NCBI GenBank assembly: GCA_049976445.1
Contig: JBMFIF010000002.1
Span: 5,115-69,114, forward strand
DNA: 64,000 bases
DNA from: Thermoprotei archaeon
Lineage (GTDB): Archaea; Thermoproteota; Thermoprotei; Gearchaeales; WAQG01
Direction of reading: 5' to 3'
A program made the position numbers and the translations under genes. Below the pieces are notes generated by a model, which made no database searches, was not told the DNA's origin, and was given only the letters and a program-made list of their open reading frames with translations. Positions 10,227-60,665 of the stretch are shown piece after piece. Positions within the stretch are counted from its first letter, which is position 1. Every line of letters starts with the position of its first letter.

Positions 10227-12443
<2,217 letters not shown>

Positions 12444-26433: not shown

Positions 26434-26529
26434 TTAACGGGAATAAGCAAGACGCTCATACAAAAAAGAAGAAAACCAACAGAGCAATACATAAAGATAC
26501 AAGGCGTGTTCTCAAGCATGACTAATGAT
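26434..26529 (+). pseudogene. ghost fragment homologous to the 3' end of porB
   Basis: Translates to LTGISKTLIQKRRKPTEQYIKIQGVFSSMTND, compared with real porB LTGPSKILIDKNRRKSIEQYIKIQGRFSHMTDE (25145-25243). Hand alignment gives roughly 70 percent nucleotide identity over about 96 nt with one codon gap. Confidence 0.55.
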
Positions 26530-26672
26530 AAAAGAAGGACAAACTTCACCCTTCAGGGTGGAGTAAATTTAAATACTCAGACACACTATACTCTACAGTA
26601 GCACCCATAAAGGGGTGTAACCCTCAAGACCTCGGGGAACCCTCGCACCTTCAGGGCGGGGAAGAGGTCAGA
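26526..26672 (+). repeat. tandem/nested IS200/IS605 right-end-like relics (tnpB-tail motif)
   Basis: tgataaaagaaggacaaacttcacccttcagggtgg (26526-26561) and ccttcagggcggggaagaggtcaga (26648-26672) are separated by about 86 nt. Joined, they equal the single copy at 35195-35243 on the opposite strand. Confidence 0.5.
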
Positions 26673-35194: not shown

Positions 35195-35243
35195 CTGACC
35201 TCTTCCCCACCCTGAAGGGCGAAGTTTGTCCTTCTTTTATCAA
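35195..35243 (-). repeat. IS200/IS605 right-end-like relic, inverted copy of the 26.5-kb relic
   Basis: The reverse complement reads tgataaaagaaggacaaacttcgcccttcagggtggggaagaggtcaga. This matches 26526-26561 plus 26648-26672 almost base for base. Confidence 0.5.
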
Positions 35244-37768: not shown

Positions 37769-37802
37769 TTAAATCAAAGATAAATTTGACATATTATTTA
37801 TT

Positions 37803-37902
37803 TTATACTCAAGAAGATACTAATGAAATTAAAGAAACATTACTAAAAATTAATACCATGGTCAATGAACCGAAAAATAGCTCGATGATACTTAAAACAA
37901 TA
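37803..37902 (+). repeat. direct repeat DR-A, copy 1 (about 100 nt)
   Basis: ttatactcaagaagatactaatgaaattaaag...aatagctcgatgatacttaaaacaata aligns with 40488-40590 (about 80 percent by eye). It includes an ATG plus 16 codons ending in a stop here. Confidence 0.6.
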
Positions 37903-37924
37903 TTCTAGGATGTTCATTGCAGAA

Positions 37925-37990
37925 ACAGTGTACCACTATTCGTTATCCCTACCCCTCCATGAGGGATTACGGTTCCATCCTTCAGTACTA
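37925..37990 (-). repeat. IS200/IS605 right-end-like relic
   Basis: The minus strand reads ggaaccgtaatccctcatggaggggtagggataacgaatag. It has the same GAAxC...C.T.A.GG.G..G tail pattern as the other relics. Confidence 0.4.
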
Positions 37991-38278
37991 TGTTTAAGAC
38001 TCCAACGATATCTGAATTCATTACTTAATTACAGTTTGGACAATAAATAATCCTTTATGCAATGCTCTTTAGTCCAAAAATTTCAATCGGTTTTGATTAT
38101 TTTCTCAGTAAATTATAAAATAAGTTCAATTTCAAGATAACTCATATATAGGTCAGTAATTATAGTAAAAATTTAAACACTAAACTTTTCACTAATAAAC
38201 AACTAGATAATTATTGTCTTGAAAAACATTTAGAAAACATTTAAATGCAGTTTCTTACACAATACTACGGGAAAGTTC

Positions 38279-38530
38279 GTGGAGAAATCAATTGAAGAGT
38301 TTGAGAAAGAAATCGAGAAAGTAAGTAGATACAAGATTAAAGCCATGATTGCATTACTTAAGCTCAGAGAAGAATATGGTGCGGAATATTTAAAAAAGAA
38401 ACGTGGAGCTATACGAAATAAGGATGAACTTCGTAAACTTGCTGAAGCCTGTAAATTAAACTGGAAATTTATGGAAGAGGTGGGAATAATACGACGCATC
38501 AACAACAAGGAAATAATAATAGCAATATGA
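38279..38530 (+). CDS. small helical protein, upstream partner of the NTase-fold gene
   Basis: 83-aa ORF with a GTG start and a 4-nt overlap (ATGA) with the next gene. No motif recognised. Confidence 0.4.
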   Translation: MEKSIEEFEKEIEKVSRYKIKAMIALLKLREEYGAEYLKKKRGAIRNKDELRKLAEACKLNWKFMEEVGIIRRINNKEIIIAI

Positions 38531-39120
38531 TCTCAGAATTTAGAAATCAATTTAAATTGTTTAGTGAAAAACTATTATTCATCAAAGATACTACTATGAG
38601 ATTTCTTATGTTATTGGCATTCATTAATACTTTTTTAGAAAAACATGCCTTAGGCAAAATAATAATCTCTAGAGGTTTTGCTGCTGAATTTTATAGCGGG
38701 GGTGGGTACAAAACTTTAGATGTTGATGTGATAGTTGAAGGAAAAACTGAAACCGTAAACCTGTTAAAAGAACTTTTAAAATCAATTGGCTATATTGAAT
38801 CTGGCAGATTTTATGTAGCAACACTATCAAGTTTAGTTGATAAAGCGCTCGACATAGTCGGAGTAGTTTATGACAAACCTAAACCACCCATAAAAATAAA
38901 AACAAACGAATACCATGTTTACATGATACCACCTGAAGAAGCAATAATTTATGCTTTAGCAGCAGCTAAATACTGGCTCTCAGTTTCAGATTTTGAAAGA
39001 GCTGTCTTAGTTTATGTAGTACAAAAAGAAAACCTTGATATCGAATACCTTAAAAAACGAGCTAGAGAAGAAAATGTTACAGAGTATCTAACCAAAATTA
39101 TAGAAATCGCAGAAAAATAA
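38527..39120 (+). CDS. nucleotidyltransferase-fold-like protein (possible AbiEii/DUF6036-type toxin)
   Basis: ISRGFAAEFYSGGGYKTLDVDVIVEG fits a hG-x(n)-DxD polymerase-beta-type NTase pattern. The two-gene overlapping module sits in an accessory islet. Confidence 0.4.
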   Translation: MISEFRNQFKLFSEKLLFIKDTTMRFLMLLAFINTFLEKHALGKIIISRGFAAEFYSGGGYKTLDVDVIVEGKTETVNLLKELLKSIGYIESGRFYVATLSSLVDKALDIVGVVYDKPKPPIKIKTNEYHVYMIPPEEAIIYALAAAKYWLSVSDFERAVLVYVVQKENLDIEYLKKRAREENVTEYLTKIIEIAEK

Positions 39121-39206
39121 TCCTATCTATATCACCTGTGGGTCTTATAATTGTGTAATTTCTTATAAAAATTAACAAAAAAGAGAAGATCGAAAAACTA
39201 TGAAAA

Positions 39207-39390
39207 GTGAAGAATAAAGAATATAATGACCTATCTCCTAAAGATCGGAATATAGCTATGGTTTTTCAAAATTATGCTCTCTATCCTCATATGAGTGTTT
39301 ATGATAATATTGCATTTCCTTTAAAAATGAAAAATTTTCTAAACTTGAAATTGATAAGAAGGTTAAGTATGTTGCTGAACTATTCAGGGC
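39207..39390 (+). pseudogene. fragment of a MalK/UgpC-type sugar ABC transporter ATPase
   Basis: [35 protein letters not shown] is the Q-loop region only. Walker A is missing upstream. A frameshift at the aaaaatttt run is needed to read [16 protein letters not shown]. Homology ends at an IS right-end-like relic. Confidence 0.7.
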
Positions 39391-39442
39391 GGAGAGCTCT
39401 CCGACGAGTTTCGTGCTCATGGAGGTCAACGGCCTACACCCC

Positions 39443-39470
39443 AGTCAGTTCTGTAAACACAGAACTGACT
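39443..39470. repeat. perfect 12-bp stem-loop at the end of an IS right-end-like relic
   Basis: agtcagttctgt-aaac-acagaactgact. It is preceded by ttcagggcggagagc and ccgacgagtttcgtgctcatggaggtcaacgg (tnpB-tail pattern). Confidence 0.55.
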
Positions 39471-39559
39471 AATATGTTATATAAGGAGGTCAGAATTCAT
39501 TATTACCAGCTATTTTATTTTTTATAGAAAAAAGCAAGGAATGTTTATTCTTAATGAGA

Positions 39560-40354
39560 TTATTTCCTAGTTACATAGAAGCTGGTTCCATCTGTAGTTA
39601 ATGGTGATGGTTGGGCTAACACTTTTCCATTGTTACTTACCATTATTACATATTCGTGTGGTAGGTCTCCTATTCGAGCAGTTATGCCACCGATGGTAGC
39701 ATAGTTTGTGTTCTGAATGTTTGTATAATCATAACCGTAATATGCTGTTCCAAAATTAGCGAGTATAGTTAAGCTTCCAGCTATTGCTGGCCTTTCTTCT
39801 ATCCATTCTGCAGATAGCATGGATGAAGTGTAGTTAACAAGTATTGAAAAGTGTTCGTTTTGTGTTAAATCATTTAGTGTTATGTTCCATTCTTGTGTTG
39901 TAGTATTTATTATTCTTACCATGAATATCATGGCAAACATATAGTCTCCTGGTTTCACAACATAACCTGATATTCTGGTTTCCGAAGCTGGCAGTAATTC
40001 ATACCATGCATAATAGAAAGTTTGGCTTTGCCATGAATCGGATTCGGTACCTGTTTGGATTAAAGAATTATCTCCTGAAAAGAAACCACCTATACCAATC
40101 CACTGAGATGAGTAAACAGGCTTTTTGCTTGGTTGGACTGTTTGAACTATCCATGAACCATTAACTGCAGTAACGGAGGGTGTGGGATTAGTAAAGCTTG
40201 ATGCTACAACATATCCTGCCCAATTTAAAGAATATACTTGATTTTTCGGAACATTATGCGATGCTGTTACATCTGTAGTTGGTGAGAAGCTCGGTATTAA
40301 AAGTAGTAATATTACTATGCTTATTATGTTCACGTAACGATTTTTATAGCTCAT
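39560..40354 (-). CDS. secreted G1-family (eqolisin/scytalidoglutamic) glutamic peptidase
   Basis: Signal/TM N-terminus, then NWAGYV, QWIGIGG, LIQTGTE (catalytic Gln context), YAWYELLP and AEWIEE (catalytic Glu context). Confidence 0.7.
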   Translation of the reverse strand: MSYKNRYVNIISIVILLLLIPSFSPTTDVTASHNVPKNQVYSLNWAGYVVASSFTNPTPSVTAVNGSWIVQTVQPSKKPVYSSQWIGIGGFFSGDNSLIQTGTESDSWQSQTFYYAWYELLPASETRISGYVVKPGDYMFAMIFMVRIINTTTQEWNITLNDLTQNEHFSILVNYTSSMLSAEWIEERPAIAGSLTILANFGTAYYGYDYTNIQNTNYATIGGITARIGDLPHEYVIMVSNNGKVLAQPSPLTTDGTSFYVTRK

Positions 40355-40487
40355 GATTTATTTTAGTTTTACAAGTTAATAAGCTTACTTGTTAATTGGT
40401 TAATAGTGAAGTTACAAAAGAATGAAGTCCTAAGCTTTAAAGGGCGAGAAGATCATATATTAAACTCTGGAAATTTGTAATTTGATA

Positions 40488-40590
40488 TTATACTCAGGAA
40501 GATATTAATAAAATTAAAGATAACTCACTATCAAAAATTGGTATGATAGTTAATGAGCTGGCGAATAGTTCGATGATACTTAAAACAATA
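40488..40590 (+). repeat. direct repeat DR-A, copy 2 (about 103 nt), forming the 5' end of the permease ORF
   Basis: See 37803-37902. An IS right-end-like relic (gaagtcctaagctttaaagggcgagaagatcat, about 40425-40457) lies just upstream. Confidence 0.6.
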
Positions 40591-41436
40591 GAGGAGAATT
40601 ATGATAGTTTCATAGAAACTGTTCTGAGCGATGTGAGCAGTGAGATTAGTAGGTTGTCTATTCATTTCGTTGGATTACAAAATTTTGCAACACTCTTTAC
40701 TGATTCTAGATTTCCATATTCAATTTTTAAAACAATTCTCTTCGTGTTAACCAGCGTACCTTTAAAGGTTATTTTTGGAATTATAATAGCATTTCTTTTT
40801 TCAAGTCCACTAATTTACGGTAGAAAAATTATGCGAGCAATGTTATTAATTCCATGGGCTCTACCAGTACTCCTCTCAGTAACAACATGGAGAATGCTAT
40901 TTGCCCCCGATGGCCCATTAGCCTTGATTCTCAGTCAGATGTTAAATTATAAATTCAGCATCTATACTCATGAATGGGATGCATTTTTTGTGTATAATAT
41001 TGTAGAGATGTGGTTAGCATACCCATTCATAATGACTATAACAATGGGTGCAATAGCAAGTGTACCTAAAGAATTTATAGAGGCATCATATATGGATGGG
41101 ATAAGCGTTTTCTCTCGGTTTAGAAAAATCATGTTACCTTTAACAATTAAACCTATACTCTTTGCAACAATACTTACTAGTGGCGCATCGTTACAGGCGT
41201 TTATGGTACCGTTACTTATAAACGATGGTGGACCAACAACTATGATAAAGTTACCAGGATTTACTTCAACCCTTGGAAATGCAAACGAATTAATGATCCT
41301 TTATGGATACAATAGAGCCTGGCTAGATCAACAATATGGTCTTTCGACAGCTACATTTCTCGTAGTCGTCGCTATTCTATTCATATATGCATTAATATGG
41401 TTTTACTTCATCTATAGAAGAGGTACCACAAAATGA
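40543..41436 (+). CDS. sugar ABC transporter permease (MalF/UgpA type), apparently 5'-truncated with a chimeric N-terminus
   Basis: FVGLQNFATLFTD and the EAA loop EASYMDGISVFSRFRKIMLP are present. The usual first TM segment before FVGL.NF is replaced by a 40-aa hydrophilic sequence encoded by repeat DR-A. Confidence 0.7.
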   Translation: MIVNELANSSMILKTIEENYDSFIETVLSDVSSEISRLSIHFVGLQNFATLFTDSRFPYSIFKTILFVLTSVPLKVIFGIIIAFLFSSPLIYGRKIMRAMLLIPWALPVLLSVTTWRMLFAPDGPLALILSQMLNYKFSIYTHEWDAFFVYNIVEMWLAYPFIMTITMGAIASVPKEFIEASYMDGISVFSRFRKIMLPLTIKPILFATILTSGASLQAFMVPLLINDGGPTTMIKLPGFTSTLGNANELMILYGYNRAWLDQQYGLSTATFLVVVAILFIYALIWFYFIYRRGTTK

Positions 41437-42287
41437 AAGTATTCAAATTTAGGTATTATATTATCAAACTGACATTAACATTAGTTGCAATACTAATAGT
41501 CTTTATGATTCTTTATCCATTGATGTATGATATCATGACTTCAATAGTAAGTGGACAAACATTAGTGACAAGCATTAATGATATGACAAAACGTGGTCTA
41601 TCAGTATCGCATTATTTATCAGCCATAACTGATCCACATTTCATTAACGCAACAATAATAAGTATTATGGTAGCATTAGTGAATATCATATTATCACTAC
41701 TAATAATAACACCAGCAGCCTATGCATTTTCAAGGTTTGAGTTTTTCGGAAAGAACACATTACTAATACTTTATCTAATACTTAGTCAAATAGGTGGAGG
41801 GTTTGGAATTGCAAGCGTAATAGCATTGTACGTATTTTTATTAAAACTTAATGCATTAGGGTTACCTGTAATAGGTAATCCATTAGTCTTACCAATCATA
41901 TACACATCCACAGCAGTGCCATTCCAGACGTGGTTAATCAAAAACTATTTTGACTCATTACCTAAAAGTTTAGATGAAGCTGCATTTATAGATGGTGTTA
42001 GATGGAATGATATAATATTCAGAGTGATCTTGCCAGCATCAAAACCAGCTATTATAATCATAGCATTATTTGCATTCATGGGGGCATGGGGAGAATTCAT
42101 AATAGCCAATTTTCTAAGAATTGAGACATTAGCGGCATACATTTATGAAACAGCCACAGGACAAACAATATATTGGAGTGACTTCGCTGCAAGAACACTA
42201 CTTTTCGCAATACCAATAATCATAATGTACGTGTTGACACAAAAATACATAGGAGAAGCAATGAAGTACGGAGCTGGAAAACTCTAA
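41433..42287 (+). CDS. sugar ABC transporter permease (MalG/UgpE type)
   Basis: Six TM segments and the EAA loop EAAFIDGVRWNDIIFRVILPASKP. 4-nt overlap with the preceding permease. Confidence 0.8.
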   Translation: MKVFKFRYYIIKLTLTLVAILIVFMILYPLMYDIMTSIVSGQTLVTSINDMTKRGLSVSHYLSAITDPHFINATIISIMVALVNIILSLLIITPAAYAFSRFEFFGKNTLLILYLILSQIGGGFGIASVIALYVFLLKLNALGLPVIGNPLVLPIIYTSTAVPFQTWLIKNYFDSLPKSLDEAAFIDGVRWNDIIFRVILPASKPAIIIIALFAFMGAWGEFIIANFLRIETLAAYIYETATGQTIYWSDFAARTLLFAIPIIIMYVLTQKYIGEAMKYGAGKL

Positions 42288-42389
42288 ATACTTATAACTA
42301 AAATTAAAATCTTATTCTTTATACTAAGTAAGAGTTACCTGTGTTTATGTTTATATTTATTTGTGTTTTTGTGTTATGTGGTGCTAGAA

Positions 42390-43319
42390 ATGGTTAGAAT
42401 TTTGGTTACTGATCAAGTTCATGAAAGTGGTTTAAAATTGCTCAAAGAAAATAATTTTGATGTCGATGTTTTACTGGGAATTGATGAGGGTAATCTTGCG
42501 AGAATTGTTGGTAATTATGATGGATTGATCGTAAGAGGGAGGACTAAAGTTACTGAAAGAGTTTTAGAAAATTCTGGTAAACTTAAAATCATAGTACGAG
42601 CAGGTGTAGGACTTGATAATATAGATTTAAATGTTGCAAAGAAAAAGGGTATTTTTGTATATAATACACCTGGTGCGCCTTCTGTCGCTGTCGCGGAATT
42701 AACTGTTGGTTTAATTGTATGTGTTTTGAGAGGTATTGGTAAGGGTTATTATGATCTCAGGCATGGTAAATGGAGTAAAAATGAACTCATGGGTCGTGAG
42801 ATTCGTGGTAAGGTTGTGAGTATTATAGGGTTTGGGAGGATCGGTTATGAAGTTGCTAAACGTCTTAAAGCGTTTGATGCAAAAATTGTAGTCTATGATG
42901 TAGATAGGAATAGAGAAATTCTTGCAAGAAGTCTTGGTGTTGATTTTGCTAATAGTTTAGAAGAAGCTCTTTCAGTTGGTGATATAGTTACACTTCATGT
43001 GCCTTTATTGCCTGAGACTAGACATTTAATTAATGCTGAGAAAATAAAAATTATGAAACGCGGGGCTTATTTAATCAACGTAGCACGTGGTGAAGTTATT
43101 GATGAAAAAGCTCTACTTGATGCACTAAAGAACGGTCAGTTATCTGGCGTAGCATTGGATGTTTTTTCAGTTGAGCCTCCTAAAGAACCTTGGGAGCTTG
43201 AATTACTTTCTCTTCCAAACGTGATCGCAACGCCACACATAGGAGCTCAAACAATTGAAACTCAAGAGGCTGAATCATTAGAAGCTGCAAAAATCATTAT
43301 AGATTTCTTTAAAAAATAA
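42390..43319 (+). CDS. D-isomer-specific 2-hydroxyacid dehydrogenase (short D-3-phosphoglycerate dehydrogenase / glyoxylate reductase type)
   Basis: MVRILVTDQ start (ATG at 42390 inside the longer ORF). NAD-binding GFGRIGYEVA. Catalytic-region blocks NVARGEVID and ATPHIGAQT. Confidence 0.8.
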   Translation: MVRILVTDQVHESGLKLLKENNFDVDVLLGIDEGNLARIVGNYDGLIVRGRTKVTERVLENSGKLKIIVRAGVGLDNIDLNVAKKKGIFVYNTPGAPSVAVAELTVGLIVCVLRGIGKGYYDLRHGKWSKNELMGREIRGKVVSIIGFGRIGYEVAKRLKAFDAKIVVYDVDRNREILARSLGVDFANSLEEALSVGDIVTLHVPLLPETRHLINAEKIKIMKRGAYLINVARGEVIDEKALLDALKNGQLSGVALDVFSVEPPKEPWELELLSLPNVIATPHIGAQTIETQEAESLEAAKIIIDFFKK

Positions 43320-43432
43320 TTTTTTATTAAATTTTGCAAAATTAAAGTGGTTATTGGTTTGCATATACATGATTGTTATTTTATCGTTTGTAAAAATATA
43401 TTAATCAATTAATTTATTTTCAGTATGCTGAA

Positions 43433-44152
43433 ATGAGTGTTGTAGAGCTAAAGAATGTGACAAAGGTTTATAGGTTGCCTGGCGCACCAGAGGTTTGGGC
43501 ATTAAGGAATATAAACTTGAAAGTAAGGAGAGGGGAATTTCTATCTATAATGGGACCTTCAGGTCATGGGAAAACTACATTGCTTCAGATTATAGGTCTG
43601 CTTGATAAACCAACATCTGGAACTGTTATTATAAATGGTGTTGAAGTTAATGGTCTTAGTGATAATGAGCTTGCAAGGTTTAGAAATAAAGTATTAGGAT
43701 TTGTTTTTCAACAGTATAATTTGATTAATAGAATGAGTGTCCTAGAAAATATAGAGATACCATTAATAATAAGAGGGATTCCTAGGAGTAAAAGAATTGA
43801 GATTGTGAAAGAAGCATTAATGATGGTTGGCGGGGATCTTACATGGCTTACTAAAAAGCCTTCTCAATTATCAGGTGGTCAACAACAGAGAGTAGCAATA
43901 GCAAGAGCTATCGTGGGTAATCCAGAAATAATATTAGCGGATGAACCGACTGGTAATCTCGATTCAGAATCTTCTAAGATAATAATGGAAACATTTGTGA
44001 AACTTAATAAAACTGGTAAAACAATAATCATGGTCACGCATAATCCTGAAATTGCCATGTGTAGCGAAAGGATAGTATTAATTAGAGATGGTATCATAGT
44101 TGGTGAAGAAAGATCAGACCCTAGTAAAAGCATTCTTTATGTTAAACGTTAA
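43433..44152 (+). CDS. ABC ATPase, MacB/LolD/FtsE-like
   Basis: Walker A GPSGHGKTT, signature LSGGQQQRVAIARA, Walker B IILADEPTGNLD. Confidence 0.85.
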   Translation: MSVVELKNVTKVYRLPGAPEVWALRNINLKVRRGEFLSIMGPSGHGKTTLLQIIGLLDKPTSGTVIINGVEVNGLSDNELARFRNKVLGFVFQQYNLINRMSVLENIEIPLIIRGIPRSKRIEIVKEALMMVGGDLTWLTKKPSQLSGGQQQRVAIARAIVGNPEIILADEPTGNLDSESSKIIMETFVKLNKTGKTIIMVTHNPEIAMCSERIVLIRDGIIVGEERSDPSKSILYVKR

Positions 44153-44220
44153 CCTCCTATATTTTGTGAAGATAAACTAAAAACTTAAATTTATCTGAGA
44201 ATTATTAATTTGAGTAAAAA

Positions 44221-47200
44221 ATGAAAAATCGATTTATTGCTGCATTTTTGATGATTTTTATTTTATTGGAGATTCCGCTGTATCTTCAATCTGTGTTTGC
44301 TTCAGGTAATTTTACGTTAGTATCTACATTATGGGGTTCTCAATCTAACCCTCAAAAGGTTTATCCTGGAAGTAGTAATGTAAGATTTATTGTTCTAATT
44401 AGGAATGATTATTCAAATTTAGTCAGTGTTGTTGGGTATCTCAGCTTACCTTATGGATTTTCTGGTACGAATGGTGGAAATGTTTTAAGTGCTGTCGGTT
44501 ACATATCAACAAATAACACTATAAGATATAATATAAATAAGGGGGAAATCTTTGAACTTGATTATTTCTTAAATATAGCTGGCTTTTTAGCTCCGGGCAC
44601 TTATTACGGTAATTTGACCTTGAATTTTACTAACTCTACATTTTCAAACGGTAATTTTACTATGAATGTGCCAATGACAGTTAGTAGTTTTCCAACATTT
44701 AATTTTCAAATTATTAGTGTATACTGGTCAACAACTGGAGGTACTATAGTTAACGCTGTACCTGGCACAAGAAACGTTGAACTTAACGTTATTCTTAAAA
44801 ATATTGGCACTGACAATATCAATAGTATATCGGCTCAACTAATTCTAAACAAGCCATTTAATCCTAATAAAGTTATGAGTAGTGCACAGCAAGTAAATAA
44901 AGGCAGCACGTTTACGCTAACGTTTACAGGTATTTCAATTGATTTTGCCAGCGCACCTGGTAACTATATGGAACAGTTAATGATTAACTCTACTTTTATT
45001 GGATACGGAGGAGCTACTAGCACATACACAAATATGATTAATTTATCATTAGTAATAGGGAACTATTCAAATGCAGGAATACAAATTGTTAGTGTTCAGT
45101 GGAATGGTGGTGAAAAGGTTTATTCCGGATCTAGGAAAGTTTCATTAGATGTAGTAATACAAAACATGGGAAGCTACACAATAAGTAATATGTTATCACG
45201 TATAATTCTTCCTAGTGGTTTCACCAATGCATATGGTTCAAACATAATTAATACAACATCTACTGCTGTCCTAAATTACGGAAATAGTATTACATTAAAC
45301 TTTAGTCCAATATACATAGGTGACTCTACAAAACCTGGTATTTATTATGTTAGACTTGTTATTATGTCAGTTGTTTCAATAGATAACACAAATCTGATAG
45401 CAAAGGATAATTTTACCATACCGATTTATGTTAATGATTTAATAACACCAATTGATCTGGTAAGTGTAGATTGGTCTTATAATGGAAATCCAGCACCTGC
45501 TTTACCAGGATCGCAATATGTAATACTGTCAATCACTTTTGTAAATAGAGGAGAAGATACATATTCAGGTTTTCAACCGAGGTTAATACTACCCCGAGGT
45601 TTTACGGTCTTTGGAACTAGTGCAGATCCTGGTCCTATTACGCCAGGTTCAATATTTACGGTTAGATCTTATGTGAATGTTAGTGATACCGTATTACCAG
45701 GGAATTATATTGCGAATTTAACTTTAAGGTTTAGTGTAAATCCATCAGGTATAAATACTGTTGGATCGATGAACTTCTCAATACCACTTTACATAATGGA
45801 TCCTAAAGGTTTTGATACCAAAATATCCATAGTAAATGCTTATTGGGGCACTGGTACCCCTAATCCAGTTTATCCAGGATCTAAAAATGTACCTTTAACT
45901 GTTGAGATTGTTAATGTTGGACTTTATACAGCACAAGCTGTTCAAATAGGTATTTCTGCTCCTGAAACTTTCACACCAATAATTAATTCAACTAGCGTCA
46001 CATCTACATTACCTTCAGGTTCCTTTGCCTCTGCTGTCTTGTATTTTGATATATCACCACATACTACTCCAGGATCTTATGTGTTCTTAGTGAACGTGAA
46101 ATATTTTATAAGTGTTTATGGTGCAACAATATATAGATATGTTAAATTTGTTTTTGTATTGTATGTATCTCAACCAACTTCAGGGCCTCCATATATTAAT
46201 GTAGTTAATTCGGGTTGGCTTAATAATTATCCTGTATATCCTGGGACTCAGAATGCTACATTCAGTTTAACTATAAACAATGAGGCGCCATTTCCGATTG
46301 CTGGGATTCATTTAAAACTTGTTTTACCTAGAGGATTTACACCTGGAGTCAATGGAGTAGAATCATACATAGGAGGCCCAATACAGCAATGGCAAACAGC
46401 GTCTGCAAGTTTTAGTATAAATGTTAATGCGAGCACATTACCTGGATTATATACTGCATCCTTAAAAATTGATTATATTTTATTGAGTGGAGGAAATAAC
46501 TTAAAGAATAGCGAAGAGAAAGAGATAGTACTACGTGTAAACTCGTTAAAAGGTTTTGAATATATTACATATAATTGGGTCGGATATGCTCCGAACCCGG
46601 GTAATGTAGGAGCTACTTTGATTGTTCTTGTCAGAAATACAGAGGTGCCAACTATGAAGGGAATCGTTGCAGAGATTCAGTTACCAAAAGGTTTTAACTC
46701 TACAATAACTGGGACAAGAGTTTTTAATGTAACACCTTATATATTTACTTCTATAAATCAGGTTCAGAATTTATTACAACGCACACCTGTTTCTAGCTTA
46801 CAATTTATGGTTCCTCAACAAGCAACACAAGCAAATCTCGGAGATTTCCTGGCAATACCTATATCAGTATCTATTAACAAAAATGTAACCCCAGGCTATT
46901 ATCCGATAATAATAAAGCTTAATTTTTTAGATCAATGGAATGTTGTTAGGAACGTTATAGTTAATGGAGACTTCTGGCTACCAGGTTCATCAAACATTAT
47001 TCAAGTTGTAGAAGGAAAATCTAAGTTATTAGTTGGTAATAGGACTGCAGAAATCAATATATATCTTAGGAATAATGGTTCATCGTCAGTTTACAACGTG
47101 TATGTTGCAATAACTAACATGGAAGCACCAATCTCGATATCGTCAACTGTGAAATATATACCTATAATTGGGCCCAATTCTGAAGTGCCCGTATCATGGG

Positions 47201-47799
47201 TTGTATCCGTAAGCCCTTCAATCAGTTATTTGGGGTCAGTACCGATAGTACTTTCAATTACTTTTGTAGATCCTGCAGGCTTCAGGCATAATATTACTCA
47301 GACAGCAATTCTTTTCATAGAAGGTCTTGCTGAAATAAAGTTCGTTGATGTAACCGTGGAGCCAAAACCTATCTATTTAGGTTCCACAATAACAATATCG
47401 GCAACATTAATCAACTTAGGAACTTATAAGGCCGGAAACGTTGAGGCATGGTTAGAGGGTAATGACATAATTACACTTTCTAATTCATATACGTTTGTGG
47501 GTGATATAGATGTTGGTTCGCAAATACCGATAAGTTTATCAGCTAATATAAGCAACAAAGCTGTAAATAAAACAATCGTGTATATAGTAATTAAATTTAA
47601 GAATGTTTTTAATGAAATAACGACTGAACGGTATCCGATAGTTCTGAACATTACATATAAACCTCCACAGACGCAAACACAAGCGCAGAGTCTTATTTTA
47701 CCAAATGTATACGAACTTTTAATAATTGTAGCTACTGTTATATTCCTATCAGTAAGTGGATATATGATCTATCTCTTGTATAAGAAAACAAAGCATTAA
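44221..47799 (+). CDS. 1192-aa secreted, C-terminally membrane-anchored repeat protein (CARDB / COG1361 S-layer-domain-like repeats)
   Basis: Signal peptide. About nine repeats of roughly 120-130 aa share the pattern [IV]xW......P.PG..NV.L.V.+.N.G......+...L.LP.GF. Many N-x-S/T sequons. Terminal TM LLIIVATVIFLSVSGYMIYLLY followed by KKTKH. Confidence 0.7.
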   Translation: MKNRFIAAFLMIFILLEIPLYLQSVFASGNFTLVSTLWGSQSNPQKVYPGSSNVRFIVLIRNDYSNLVSVVGYLSLPYGFSGTNGGNVLSAVGYISTNNTIRYNINKGEIFELDYFLNIAGFLAPGTYYGNLTLNFTNSTFSNGNFTMNVPMTVSSFPTFNFQIISVYWSTTGGTIVNAVPGTRNVELNVILKNIGTDNINSISAQLILNKPFNPNKVMSSAQQVNKGSTFTLTFTGISIDFASAPGNYMEQLMINSTFIGYGGATSTYTNMINLSLVIGNYSNAGIQIVSVQWNGGEKVYSGSRKVSLDVVIQNMGSYTISNMLSRIILPSGFTNAYGSNIINTTSTAVLNYGNSITLNFSPIYIGDSTKPGIYYVRLVIMSVVSIDNTNLIAKDNFTIPIYVNDLITPIDLVSVDWSYNGNPAPALPGSQYVILSITFVNRGEDTYSGFQPRLILPRGFTVFGTSADPGPITPGSIFTVRSYVNVSDTVLPGNYIANLTLRFSVNPSGINTVGSMNFSIPLYIMDPKGFDTKISIVNAYWGTGTPNPVYPGSKNVPLTVEIVNVGLYTAQAVQIGISAPETFTPIINSTSVTSTLPSGSFASAVLYFDISPHTTPGSYVFLVNVKYFISVYGATIYRYVKFVFVLYVSQPTSGPPYINVVNSGWLNNYPVYPGTQNATFSLTINNEAPFPIAGIHLKLVLPRGFTPGVNGVESYIGGPIQQWQTASASFSINVNASTLPGLYTASLKIDYILLSGGNNLKNSEEKEIVLRVNSLKGFEYITYNWVGYAPNPGNVGATLIVLVRNTEVPTMKGIVAEIQLPKGFNSTITGTRVFNVTPYIFTSINQVQNLLQRTPVSSLQFMVPQQATQANLGDFLAIPISVSINKNVTPGYYPIIIKLNFLDQWNVVRNVIVNGDFWLPGSSNIIQVVEGKSKLLVGNRTAEINIYLRNNGSSSVYNVYVAITNMEAPISISSTVKYIPIIGPNSEVPVSWVVSVSPSISYLGSVPIVLSITFVDPAGFRHNITQTAILFIEGLAEIKFVDVTVEPKPIYLGSTITISATLINLGTYKAGNVEAWLEGNDIITLSNSYTFVGDIDVGSQIPISLSANISNKAVNKTIVYIVIKFKNVFNEITTERYPIVLNITYKPPQTQTQAQSLILPNVYELLIIVATVIFLSVSGYMIYLLYKKTKH

Positions 47800-55865: not shown

Positions 55866-56150
55866 GTTGGTAGTTGAATCATTTTAGGATAAATTTTATA
55901 CTGTTTTAAGAAATGATGGGTATGAATTGGTTCATACTAATCTGGTTCCACTACCGTTCTAGAGGGAAAAGAAATCAAATGCATAAGAGGACCCTACAAT
56001 CATATCAGGAGGAAGCTCCAGAAGAAGGGACTCCTAAAAAAGGATAGAGGAGGCATGAGCCCTCTTGAACTGGCAAATGAGGTTGGAGGATAAAGCCCCC
56101 AGCTGAACATCAGAAGCTCAGCCTTTTAGGAGTAGCTCATATAATCGACA
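55866..56150 (+). mobile_element. non-autonomous IS200/IS605-derived element: repeat DR-B copy 1 plus tnpB-tail relics
   Basis: 55866-55953 matches 60517-60605 and contains the hairpin gtatgaa-ttgg-ttcatac. 56000-56140 contains ...gaactggcaaatgaggttggaggataaagcccccagctgaacatcagaagctcagccttttaggagtagctc (tnpB-tail pattern). Confidence 0.45.
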
Positions 56151-60516: not shown

Positions 60517-60665
60517 TTGGGTAGTCGAATCATTTTAGGATAAATTTTATACTATCTTAAGAAAAGATGAGTATGGATTGGTTCATACTAACCTGACTCC
60601 ACCACATATTTATCAAGTAGCATTTTTCAAACTACAACACACACAATTATGTAGCAAAGCAAAAC
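60517..60665 (+). mobile_element. repeat DR-B copy 2 fused to a MITE-type right end
   Basis: 60517-60605 matches 55866-55953 (hairpin gtatgga-ttgg-ttcatac with a G-U-compatible change). 60625-60662 caaactacaacacacacaattatgtagcaaagcaaaac resembles the right end of the 12.5-kb MITE. Confidence 0.45.

Follow-up and report, generated by a model that had tools for sequence, protein, structure and literature searches.

Direct repeats that bracket accessory genes raise the question of whether they mark the ends of an inserted element. We examined this question in a 64,000-nt stretch of contig JBMFIF010000002.1 from a Thermoprotei archaeon (GCA_049976445.1), called the window below, in which two direct repeats of about 100 nt, copy 1 (37803-37902) and copy 2 (40488-40590), lie on either side of a short run of accessory genes, the second of them leading into a gene for a MalF-type sugar permease. 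The original prediction took the repeats for the borders of an islet that had entered a sugar-transporter operon and had given the permease a foreign N terminus. We find that both repeats are pieces of the interior of one and the same permease gene. The locus is probably a decaying maltodextrin-uptake operon in an AT-rich archaeon, accompanied by an orphan gene fragment, and thus a product of ordinary decay rather than of an element.

The Repeats Are Two Pieces of One Permease Gene

The repeat pair is real, and it is a pair only. A full-length MAFFT alignment of the two intervals leaves 81 of the 100 positions of copy 1 invariant with a single 3-nt gap, blastn joins them at 78% identity over 109 columns (E ~1e-18), and the 27-mer AATAG[C/T]TCGATGATACTTAAAACAATA occurs exactly twice in the window, compared with an expectation of 0.00 from 100 shuffles. 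No third copy was found within the window, either at up to 3 mismatches or in repeat scans, and exact scans of the metagenome and viral collections with the 27-mer returned no match, the metagenome collection evidently being without this lineage. With two copies in the window and none in those collections, the repeat is not a widespread promoter or leader, one half of the outcome that the original prediction had named as fatal to it; we rejected a promoter or leader role altogether, as the repeat is coding sequence in relatives.

Both copies contain an ATG and share one reading frame, which the 3-nt indel preserves. As predicted, the first of these frames is short and the second long: the ATG at 37858 in copy 1 opens a frame of 16 codons, MVNEPKNSSMILKTIF, that ends at a stop, and the ATG at 40543 in copy 2 opens the 297-aa permease open reading frame (ORF). 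In translation, copy 1 reads LFYTQEDTNEIKET-LLKINTMVNEPKNSSMILKTI and copy 2 reads YYTQEDINKIKDNSLSKIGMIVNELANSSMILKTI.

A search with the open frame from 40486 as query retrieved 248 homologs, and nearly all full-length members are 470-505 aa long (typically 480-500). The closest, P0001, is encoded on contig L001 (GCA_964615525.1), has 494 aa, and is 96% identical to the query across all 316 of its residues; none of the 248 falls between 96% and 68% identity. Over the repeat region P0001 reads ...GFKLFYTQEDINKIKDSSLPKIGMIVNELTNSSMILKTIEENYDSF..., and the native sequence in the three-way alignment of copy 1, copy 2, and L001 is ...KLFYTQEDINKIK... Comparison with this intact ortholog refined the edges, such that the homology of copy 1 spans ~37795-37902, that of copy 2 begins at 40489 and runs on as the gene itself, and the 3' edge is sharp in both copies, at ...ACAATA. 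Copy 1 is 80.6% identical to L001 4402-4509 in its DNA and 69% identical to P0001 residues 178-213 in its protein; copy 2 lies inside a 3341-nt block that is colinear with L001 at 93.3% identity (L001 4404-7728, window 40485-43823). Both repeat copies are internal coding sequence of one MalF/MdxF-type permease gene of ~494 aa.

It follows from the alignment with P0001 that the repeat has donated nothing to the permease. The sequence from 40489 onward is the protein's own internal loop, 94-96% identical to that of P0001, and Met1 of the window permease is the native, conserved Met198; a stop at 40483-40485 closes the frame upstream. What has changed is that about 197 N-terminal residues (range ~178-197) have been lost, comprising the first transmembrane segment (TM1) and most of the outward-facing loop, and the hydrophilic N terminus that had seemed foreign is native interior. 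In hydropathy, P0001 has a sole N-terminal hydrophobic helix at residues 20-47, a long hydrophilic insert, and its next helix at 262-280, so the TM1 that relatives possess stands ~150 residues upstream in a longer protein. The other half of the outcome named as fatal, a shared N-terminal sequence with TM1 elsewhere in relatives, thus holds in substance. Sequence equivalent to P0001 residues 20-47 is encoded nowhere in the window. The truncation and the absence of TM1, as originally proposed, are therefore borne out by this 494-aa ortholog, and the tail left in front of the remaining helices has ~57 residues and is acidic.

The permease is otherwise a recognizable member of its family. Like E. 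coli MalF and the archaeal Mdx/Mal permeases, its core matches Pfam BPD_transp_1 (PF00528, E = 1.5e-12) and NCBIfam MalF (PRK10999, E = 2e-30, under the equivalog cut-off of that model), and a MalG-type partner is encoded next to it. It differs from them in being without TM1 and ~150 residues of the insert. In relatives the permease is clustered with amylase, GH57, binding protein, and MalK genes.

The insert corresponds to P0001 residues ~50-235 (L001 4020-4575), a hydrophilic stretch of ~180 residues right after TM1 that is missing from the window. Its length is kept, in proteins of 480-500 aa, across metagenome-assembled genomes (MAGs) of Desulfurococcales, Sulfolobales, and Thermofilaceae, with variable sequence and no Pfam domain, and there are shorter homologs of ~317 aa without it. 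In the family of the window permease the insert follows TM1; the P2 loop of E. coli MalF lies between TM3 and TM4.

The Ancestral Maltodextrin Cluster and Its Losses

On L001, the C terminus of MalK is followed by an alpha-amylase gene (- strand), a 453-aa gene in the position of the binding protein, the 494-aa permease, a 284-aa permease, a 2-hydroxyacid dehydrogenase, and the start of an ABC (ATP-binding cassette) ATPase; the contig ends upstream at malK, and the context beyond malK in this nearest intact relative lies outside it. Two more distant loci, L009 and L011, carry a cluster of Glucodextran_C, GH57, malK (+), amylase (-), binding protein (+), permease 1, and permease 2. The gene orders of L001, L009, and L011 together give an ancestral arrangement of malK (+), alpha-amylase (-), binding protein (+), permease 1 of ~494 aa (+), and permease 2 (+). 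A scan of a genome collection with P0001 retrieved only relatives at 43-65% identity, all of them MAGs of Desulfurococcales, Sulfolobales, Pyrodictiaceae, and Ignisphaera, with neither the window species nor that of L001 in the returned set.

All of L001 1-4403 is absent from the window at both the DNA and the protein level. Searches of the window by tblastn for a relic of the binding protein or of the amylase found none, and yielded only a 190-nt frameshifted malK fragment; the window likewise holds no cognate binding protein and no sugar-type ATPase. The proposal of a sugar ABC operon that has been broken up and has no binding protein is thus correct, since relatives carry the binding-protein gene and the window is without it. 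As the operon is without binding protein, amylase, and ATPase, maltodextrin uptake via this locus should not be credited in metabolic reconstructions of this Thermoprotei lineage. Public gene calls list a 287- or 297-aa "sugar ABC transporter permease" here, which is actually the 3' two-thirds of a ~494-aa gene.

Copy 1 stands apart from the operon, 27 nt past the stop of the last gene of a cobalamin cluster. This salvage cluster comprises Peripla_BP_2, FecCD, and ABC genes followed by those for a CobD-type aminotransferase, CbiB, CbiZ, CobS, and a MobA-like NTP transferase; an exact look-up of this last protein gave no record. In relatives at 70-73% identity (L026 and L028) the cluster is followed by an ArnR1-like regulator and a glycosyltransferase, not by the mal locus, which makes the point just past 37768 a separate break in synteny. 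A tRNA search of the window found none.

The DNA Between the Copies Is Composite

The DNA between the repeats is not a single insert. Part of it belongs to the operon, namely the fragment of a MalK-type ATPase, which has an apparent 1-nt frameshift near 39333 as read from the sequence. Against MalK residues 64-103 of L009 and L011 this fragment shows 70-73% identity, on a par with the values for permease 1 (63-68%) and permease 2 (70-72%) against those two genomes. The fragment matches malK in 10 relatives, and DNA matches to UgpC/MalK genes in the plasmid collection extend to ~39390, across the frameshift. Its strand (+) and its place upstream of the permease agree with the ancestral order. 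Because its identity equals that of the permeases and its orientation and relative position are native, the relic is the in-place remnant of the operon's own ATPase, and the dead ATPase pseudogene of the original prediction is confirmed. BLAST of the whole spacer against plasmid and phage sequences matched this relic alone.

A second part is a two-gene cassette whose larger product was predicted to have a nucleotidyltransferase (NTase) fold, and modeling supports that assignment. The AlphaFold2 model of the 197-aa protein (pLDDT 87.6) has as its top Foldseek matches an NTase-like antigen, MenT1, ANT(2'')-Ia, and TglT (probability ~1.0, E 1e-3 to 1e-2, TM-score ~0.5), and a G59-G60...D65-x-D67 block is invariant in 11 sequences. 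The protein has no Pfam, NCBIfam, or PADLOC family match, and a faint DUF6036 match (E = 0.039) was seen in one of 11 members of the family. Its homologs form only 12 clusters at 65-79% identity, all from Thermoproteota MAGs, and an ~82-83-aa gene lies directly upstream in all four genomes examined. The neighbors there are unrelated (GH38 and ceramidase genes, an MNT/HEPN pair, a shikimate operon), and DNA similarity to the window is limited to 38280-39119.

The cassette looks like a putative toxin-antitoxin-type accessory pair, in which the 83-aa partner may be an antitoxin or regulator. It shares with the AbiE and MenAT pairs the NTase fold, with MenT1 and TglT among the best structural matches, the small overlapping upstream gene, and the varied contexts. 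It differs from them in that the window protein falls outside the curated families (AbiEii/DUF1814, MenT, and the like), with TM-scores of only ~0.5.

Two GC-rich patches had been taken for relics of insertion sequences (IS), and we find no basis for this. The patches are unrelated to each other and single-copy in the window, and six-frame translation shows no trace of a transposase. The segment around the first patch, 37903-38278, has no counterpart in 33 fetched loci, no Rfam hit, no six-frame hit in Pfam or PHROGs, no viral-contig match, and no significant fold (z = -1.1). The second, from at least 39428, travels with the peptidase segment described below, and its hairpin has no viral or metagenome match. 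Neither patch matched anything in the plasmid, phage, viral, or metagenome collections; as structured RNA or tRNA fragments they gave no Rfam hit at E <= 1 and no tRNA. We also ruled out the two patches as inverted ends of one element, as there is no meaningful alignment between them. More generally, no integrase, transposase, or recombinase was found between the repeats with Pfam, NCBIfam, PADLOC, and PHROGs, in ORFs or in six-frame stretches of the unassigned segments.

The third part is a gene on the minus strand whose product was predicted to be a secreted G1 peptidase, an assignment in keeping with its Peptidase_A4 match (80.1 bits against a cut-off of 22.3) and its hydrophobic N terminus. 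The gene has no counterpart in the relatives' loci and is foreign to the ancestral cluster. Its segment recurs, with its flank, on L006, a 1.1-kb contig from another sample (WPAA01064450.1, GCA_023270135.1) that is 99.6% identical and covers 39428-40488. Past the equivalent of 40488, L006 (positions 1-52) runs into 52 unrelated nt, CTTCAGTAACAAACTTTATTTCATAAGCATAAGTAGTGTATAAGTAAGATGT, instead of the permease, and these match nothing in the window or in any fetched locus. The colinearity with L001 begins at 40485-40489. The other end of L006 stops in the 39443-39470 hairpin, with the loop flipped. The peptidase flank therefore has at least two right-hand partners in effectively one species, which suggests a recent join of peptidase and permease; the L006 junction is either a real strain polymorphism or the mark of a weak contig.

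The spacer is composite, because it holds a native malK relic, a cassette that occurs alone elsewhere, and a peptidase segment that has another partner in L006. The inventory of the original prediction therefore survives for the NTase-fold pair, the dead ATPase, and the G1 peptidase and fails for both insertion-sequence relics. Its central idea, that the repeats bound one inserted islet, does not hold for a composite spacer with no integrase or transposase and with flanking copies of very different age. The features of the locus are listed in Table 1.

Table 1. Features from the cobalamin-cluster boundary to the second permease gene, in window coordinates
Feature	Position	Strand	Description
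Copy 1	37795..37902	+	Orphan, non-functional MalF/MdxF-type permease fragment, codons ~177-213
Spacer with GC-rich patch (~37930-37990)	37903..38278		No family; first putative IS relic of the original prediction
83-aa gene	38279..38530	+	Upstream cassette partner; overlaps the next gene by 4 nt; no family hit
197-aa NTase-fold protein	38527..39120	+	Second cassette gene; from homologs and AlphaFold2/Foldseek
MalK-type ATPase relic	39200..39390	+	Residues ~58-121; truncated at both ends
GC-rich patch with hairpin	39391..39559		Perfect 12-bp hairpin 39443-39470 (z = -5.6); second putative IS relic of the original prediction
Peptidase_A4 (MEROPS G1) protein	39560..40354	-	264 aa; PF01828, E = 2e-22; hydrophobic N-terminal segment
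Peptidase-side flank	40355..40488		Up to the rearrangement junction; L006 identical to ...aatttgatat (40488)
Copy 2	40489..40590	+	Codons ~180-213 of the native permease, with which the truncated gene now begins
Truncated permease 1 ORF	40543..41436	+	297 aa; without TM1 and most of the large extracytoplasmic insert
Permease 2 (MalG/MdxG-type)	41433..42287	+	Intact; Pfam BPD_transp_1; 97.5% identical to the L001 ortholog

The Two Copies Differ in Age

The two copies are not of one age. Copy 1, copy 2, and L001 have 99 ungapped sites in common, at which 16 changes are unique to copy 1, 3 to copy 2, and 2 to L001. The differences of copy 1 fall at about 4, 6, and 7 sites in codon positions 1, 2, and 3 (a hand count on the three-way alignment) and thus show no third-position excess; they look neutral. 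Because the corrected distance between copies 1 and 2 is ~0.23, compared with synonymous divergence (dS) of 0.16-0.27 between the window and L001, copy 1 split from the lineage of copy 2 about as early as, or before, the species split. The operon of L001 is still intact despite the age of copy 1.

The truncation itself looks recent. The truncated permease shows little decay: its ratio of non-synonymous to synonymous divergence (dN/dS) is 0.072, next to 0.067 in permease 2 and 0.06 in the dehydrogenase, and no stop or frameshift has arisen. Replacements in the two permeases, polarized with outgroups, number 13 on the window lineage and 2 on that of L001, and the dehydrogenase, used as control, gives 5:5 (binomial p = 0.007 for the asymmetry; Fisher test against the control, p = 0.075). 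The surplus, ~11 replacements in ~1400 non-synonymous sites, amounts to ~0.8% neutral divergence, at which ~0.5 stop codons are expected. A surplus of this size fits a recent release from constraint and falls well short of what a truncation of copy 1's age would have accumulated; we infer two separate events, an old one that left copy 1 and a recent replacement by which the gene was truncated.

Probable Decay of the Operon and Alternative Explanations

We favor the following order and mechanism of events. From malK codon ~121 to permease 1 codon ~179, ~5 kb is gone from this lineage, comprising the 3' part of malK, the genes for amylase and binding protein, and the permease region that encodes TM1 and most of the loop; a segment of ~1.1 kb with the secreted G1 peptidase occupies its place. 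The 5' end of malK is missing as well, beside the NTase-fold cassette. Copy 2 is the surviving native 5' end of the truncated permease, its junction the product of what would be a recent truncation. Copy 1, an orphan of 105 nt from the corresponding part of the gene, lies past the cobalamin cluster and is non-coding and far more diverged, so that the two copies would not come from one event. Copy 1 probably derives from an older partial duplication or from a second, diverged copy of the operon, and may have been homogenized in part at its 3' end by gene conversion. The remaining permease genes would most likely be young pseudogenes, too recently released for decay to show.

Several observations weigh against this history. 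The evidence for a recent junction is one 1.1-kb contig, whose hairpin end with flipped loop may reflect a weakness of assembly; the signal of relaxation is weak when set against the control gene (p = 0.075); and the low overall dN/dS (0.07), in frames that run for 600 codons free of stops and frameshifts, is also compatible with continued function. That copy 1 predates the species split rests on 99 sites. The mismatches along the repeat are uneven (4/34, 14/38, and 1/27; chi-square p = 0.0015), contrary to the prediction of neutral decay, and the last 27 nt of the copies are nearly identical, synonymous sites included; partial gene conversion at the 3' end would explain this. Most awkwardly, in gene coordinates the two fragments start no more than ~6-9 nt apart (copy 1 at ~L001 4399, copy 2 at L001 4408), a coincidence of ~1% if the events were independent, and a history of two events leaves this shared 5' edge unexplained. 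The flanks upstream of the two copies show no significant similarity (p = 0.11). No single model that we tried accommodates at once the common 5' edge, the unlike flanks, and the unequal ages. Two further candidates were rejected: a duplication in place at the moment of truncation, by the mismatch in ages, and an allelic import of the right side from an L001-like donor, which might have explained the low divergence, because a crossover would find no homologous sequence to the left of 40489.

A possible, though less likely, origin for copy 1 is that it is xenologous, derived from the permease of an unsampled lineage ~20% diverged and carried in with neighboring DNA. It would account for an indel that stays in frame, for an uneven divergence that at the 5' end follows the conserved and variable stretches of the family, and for the position of copy 1 about equally far from copy 2 and L001; the lineage-specific junction of the cobalamin and mal loci also fits. 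However, none of the 248 homologs is donor-like, with nothing between 96% and 68% identity, the codon-position pattern looks neutral, and the match of the 5' edges is still left unexplained.

It is unlikely, but deserves consideration, that the truncated gene is still functional, selected as a five-helix core that starts at its native internal Met and works with permease 2, drawing its binding protein and ATPase from other loci. Sugar ABC ATPases are known to be shared between systems, and five helices are the established minimal core of type I importers (the MetI-type minimal subunit). The uninterrupted frames and a dN/dS like that of the neighboring dehydrogenase speak for function, as do the conserved start codon, the acidic tail, and, if copy 1 dates the truncation, the long survival of the gene; that purifying selection has preserved such a core ever since a truncation of copy 1's age is slightly less probable still. 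Were it functional, the locus would be a natural experiment showing TM1 and the ~180-residue extracytoplasmic insert to be dispensable in an archaeal permease family. Against this, the replacements are skewed to the window lineage, the window provides neither of the missing partners, TM1 and a conserved domain of ~150 residues that all ~490-aa relatives possess are gone, and the alternative partner of the peptidase flank in L006 points to a recent junction. A recent truncation also explains why decay is missing.

We give similarly little credence to a single event, in which a 2.6-kb segment would have entered an already truncated permease, either by Campbell-type recombination through a carried patch of ~105 nt or with a long target duplication, and to the corollary that the repeats are attL/attR-like scars. 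The arrangement does resemble the attL/attR sites of SSV-type and pNOB8-type archaeal elements, in that direct repeats of tens to ~100 nt enclose accessory genes and share an identical core. The repeats flank genes from outside the operon, start at almost identical points in the gene, and end sharply on the 3' side, where a 21-nt exact match, within a block matching at 26 of 27 positions, looks like a crossover core. Here, however, there is no integrase and no tRNA target, and the repeats are 20% diverged, of unequal age, and separated by DNA that includes native operon remains. A malK relic in native orientation inside the spacer and spacer parts with separate histories do not suit one insertion, nor do copies ~20% different, with 16 against 3 unique changes, suit a junction that looks less than 1% old. 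Campbell geometry, moreover, predicts the diverged arm beside the 3' part of the permease, whereas it is observed beside the cobalamin cluster, and the upstream flanks offer no significant similarity.

An assembly artifact, a mis-join of two strains' contigs at shared sequence, might be suspected from the metagenomic source and from the break of L006 exactly at the junction but is extremely improbable, as three further, independent assemblies (GCA_049973215.1, GCA_049700375.1, and JGI 3300039096) reproduce it at 99.7-99.98% identity, all four, from different projects and with contigs of 22-73 kb, showing one arrangement across both copies, and as copies only 80% identical are too diverged to confuse an assembler.

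Comparison with Known mal Operons

The mal clusters of hyperthermophiles are unusually prone to transfer, duplication, and rearrangement (PMC2246101). In the mal2 operon of Thermotoga maritima, malF2 is a truncated, frameshifted pseudogene behind a short leftover ORF, and there is no ATPase gene (Noll et al. 2008, PMC2246101). The window shares with it a hyperthermophile maltose/maltodextrin ABC operon in which a truncated MalF-type permease follows a short leftover ORF and the ATPase gene is missing. The damage differs in kind: a frameshift in T. maritima, a replacement of several kilobases in the window that removed the binding protein, the amylase, and the 5' third of the permease, with an extra, diverged fragment of the same gene segment 2.7 kb upstream. 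The mal region of the Thermococcales Pyrococcus furiosus and Thermococcus litoralis is flanked by insertion sequences (PMC2246101), whereas none flanks the window locus.

The locus is another case of the known break-up of mal operons, to which it adds an orphan second fragment and a strain-variable junction. Current understanding is not challenged, and the practical value lies mainly in annotation. Direct repeats around accessory genes need not be the ends of an element, and what looks like a new hydrophilic N terminus can turn out to be native sequence from inside a longer protein. Its old orphan fragment, its recent replacement, and its strain-variable junction make the locus a compact, datable record of how an operon decays in a hyperthermophile.

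Neighboring Genes and Other Repeats in the Window

Downstream of the dehydrogenase (43433-47799 and beyond) lie genes for an ABC ATPase, for a 1192-aa protein that is secreted or anchored and contains repetitive NPCBM_assoc-like segments, and for a MacB/FtsX-type permease, an arrangement that is conserved in the sister assemblies.

Three further repeat families occur elsewhere in the window. An 86-nt intergenic direct repeat (55869-55954 and 60520-60605) is 88% identical between its copies, contains a TTTTATA motif, and has no Rfam match; its two-hairpin fold is more stable than that of shuffled sequences in both (z = -3.6 for one copy on the + strand and -4.2 for the other on the - strand), and it could be a small RNA or a regulatory element common to both sites. 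At 26526-26561 (+) and 35207-35242 (-), a 36-nt element, TGATAAAAGAAGGACAAACTTCACCCTTCAGGGTGG, occurs in opposite orientations with 97% complementarity, each copy holding the palindrome CACCCTTCAGGGTG and the second lying between an aldo-keto reductase gene and cbiZ. Finally, an internal direct repeat at 11199-11449 and 12024-12274, with 71-74% identity and a spacing of 825 nt, probably corresponds to the two AAA domains of a CDC48-like ATPase gene.

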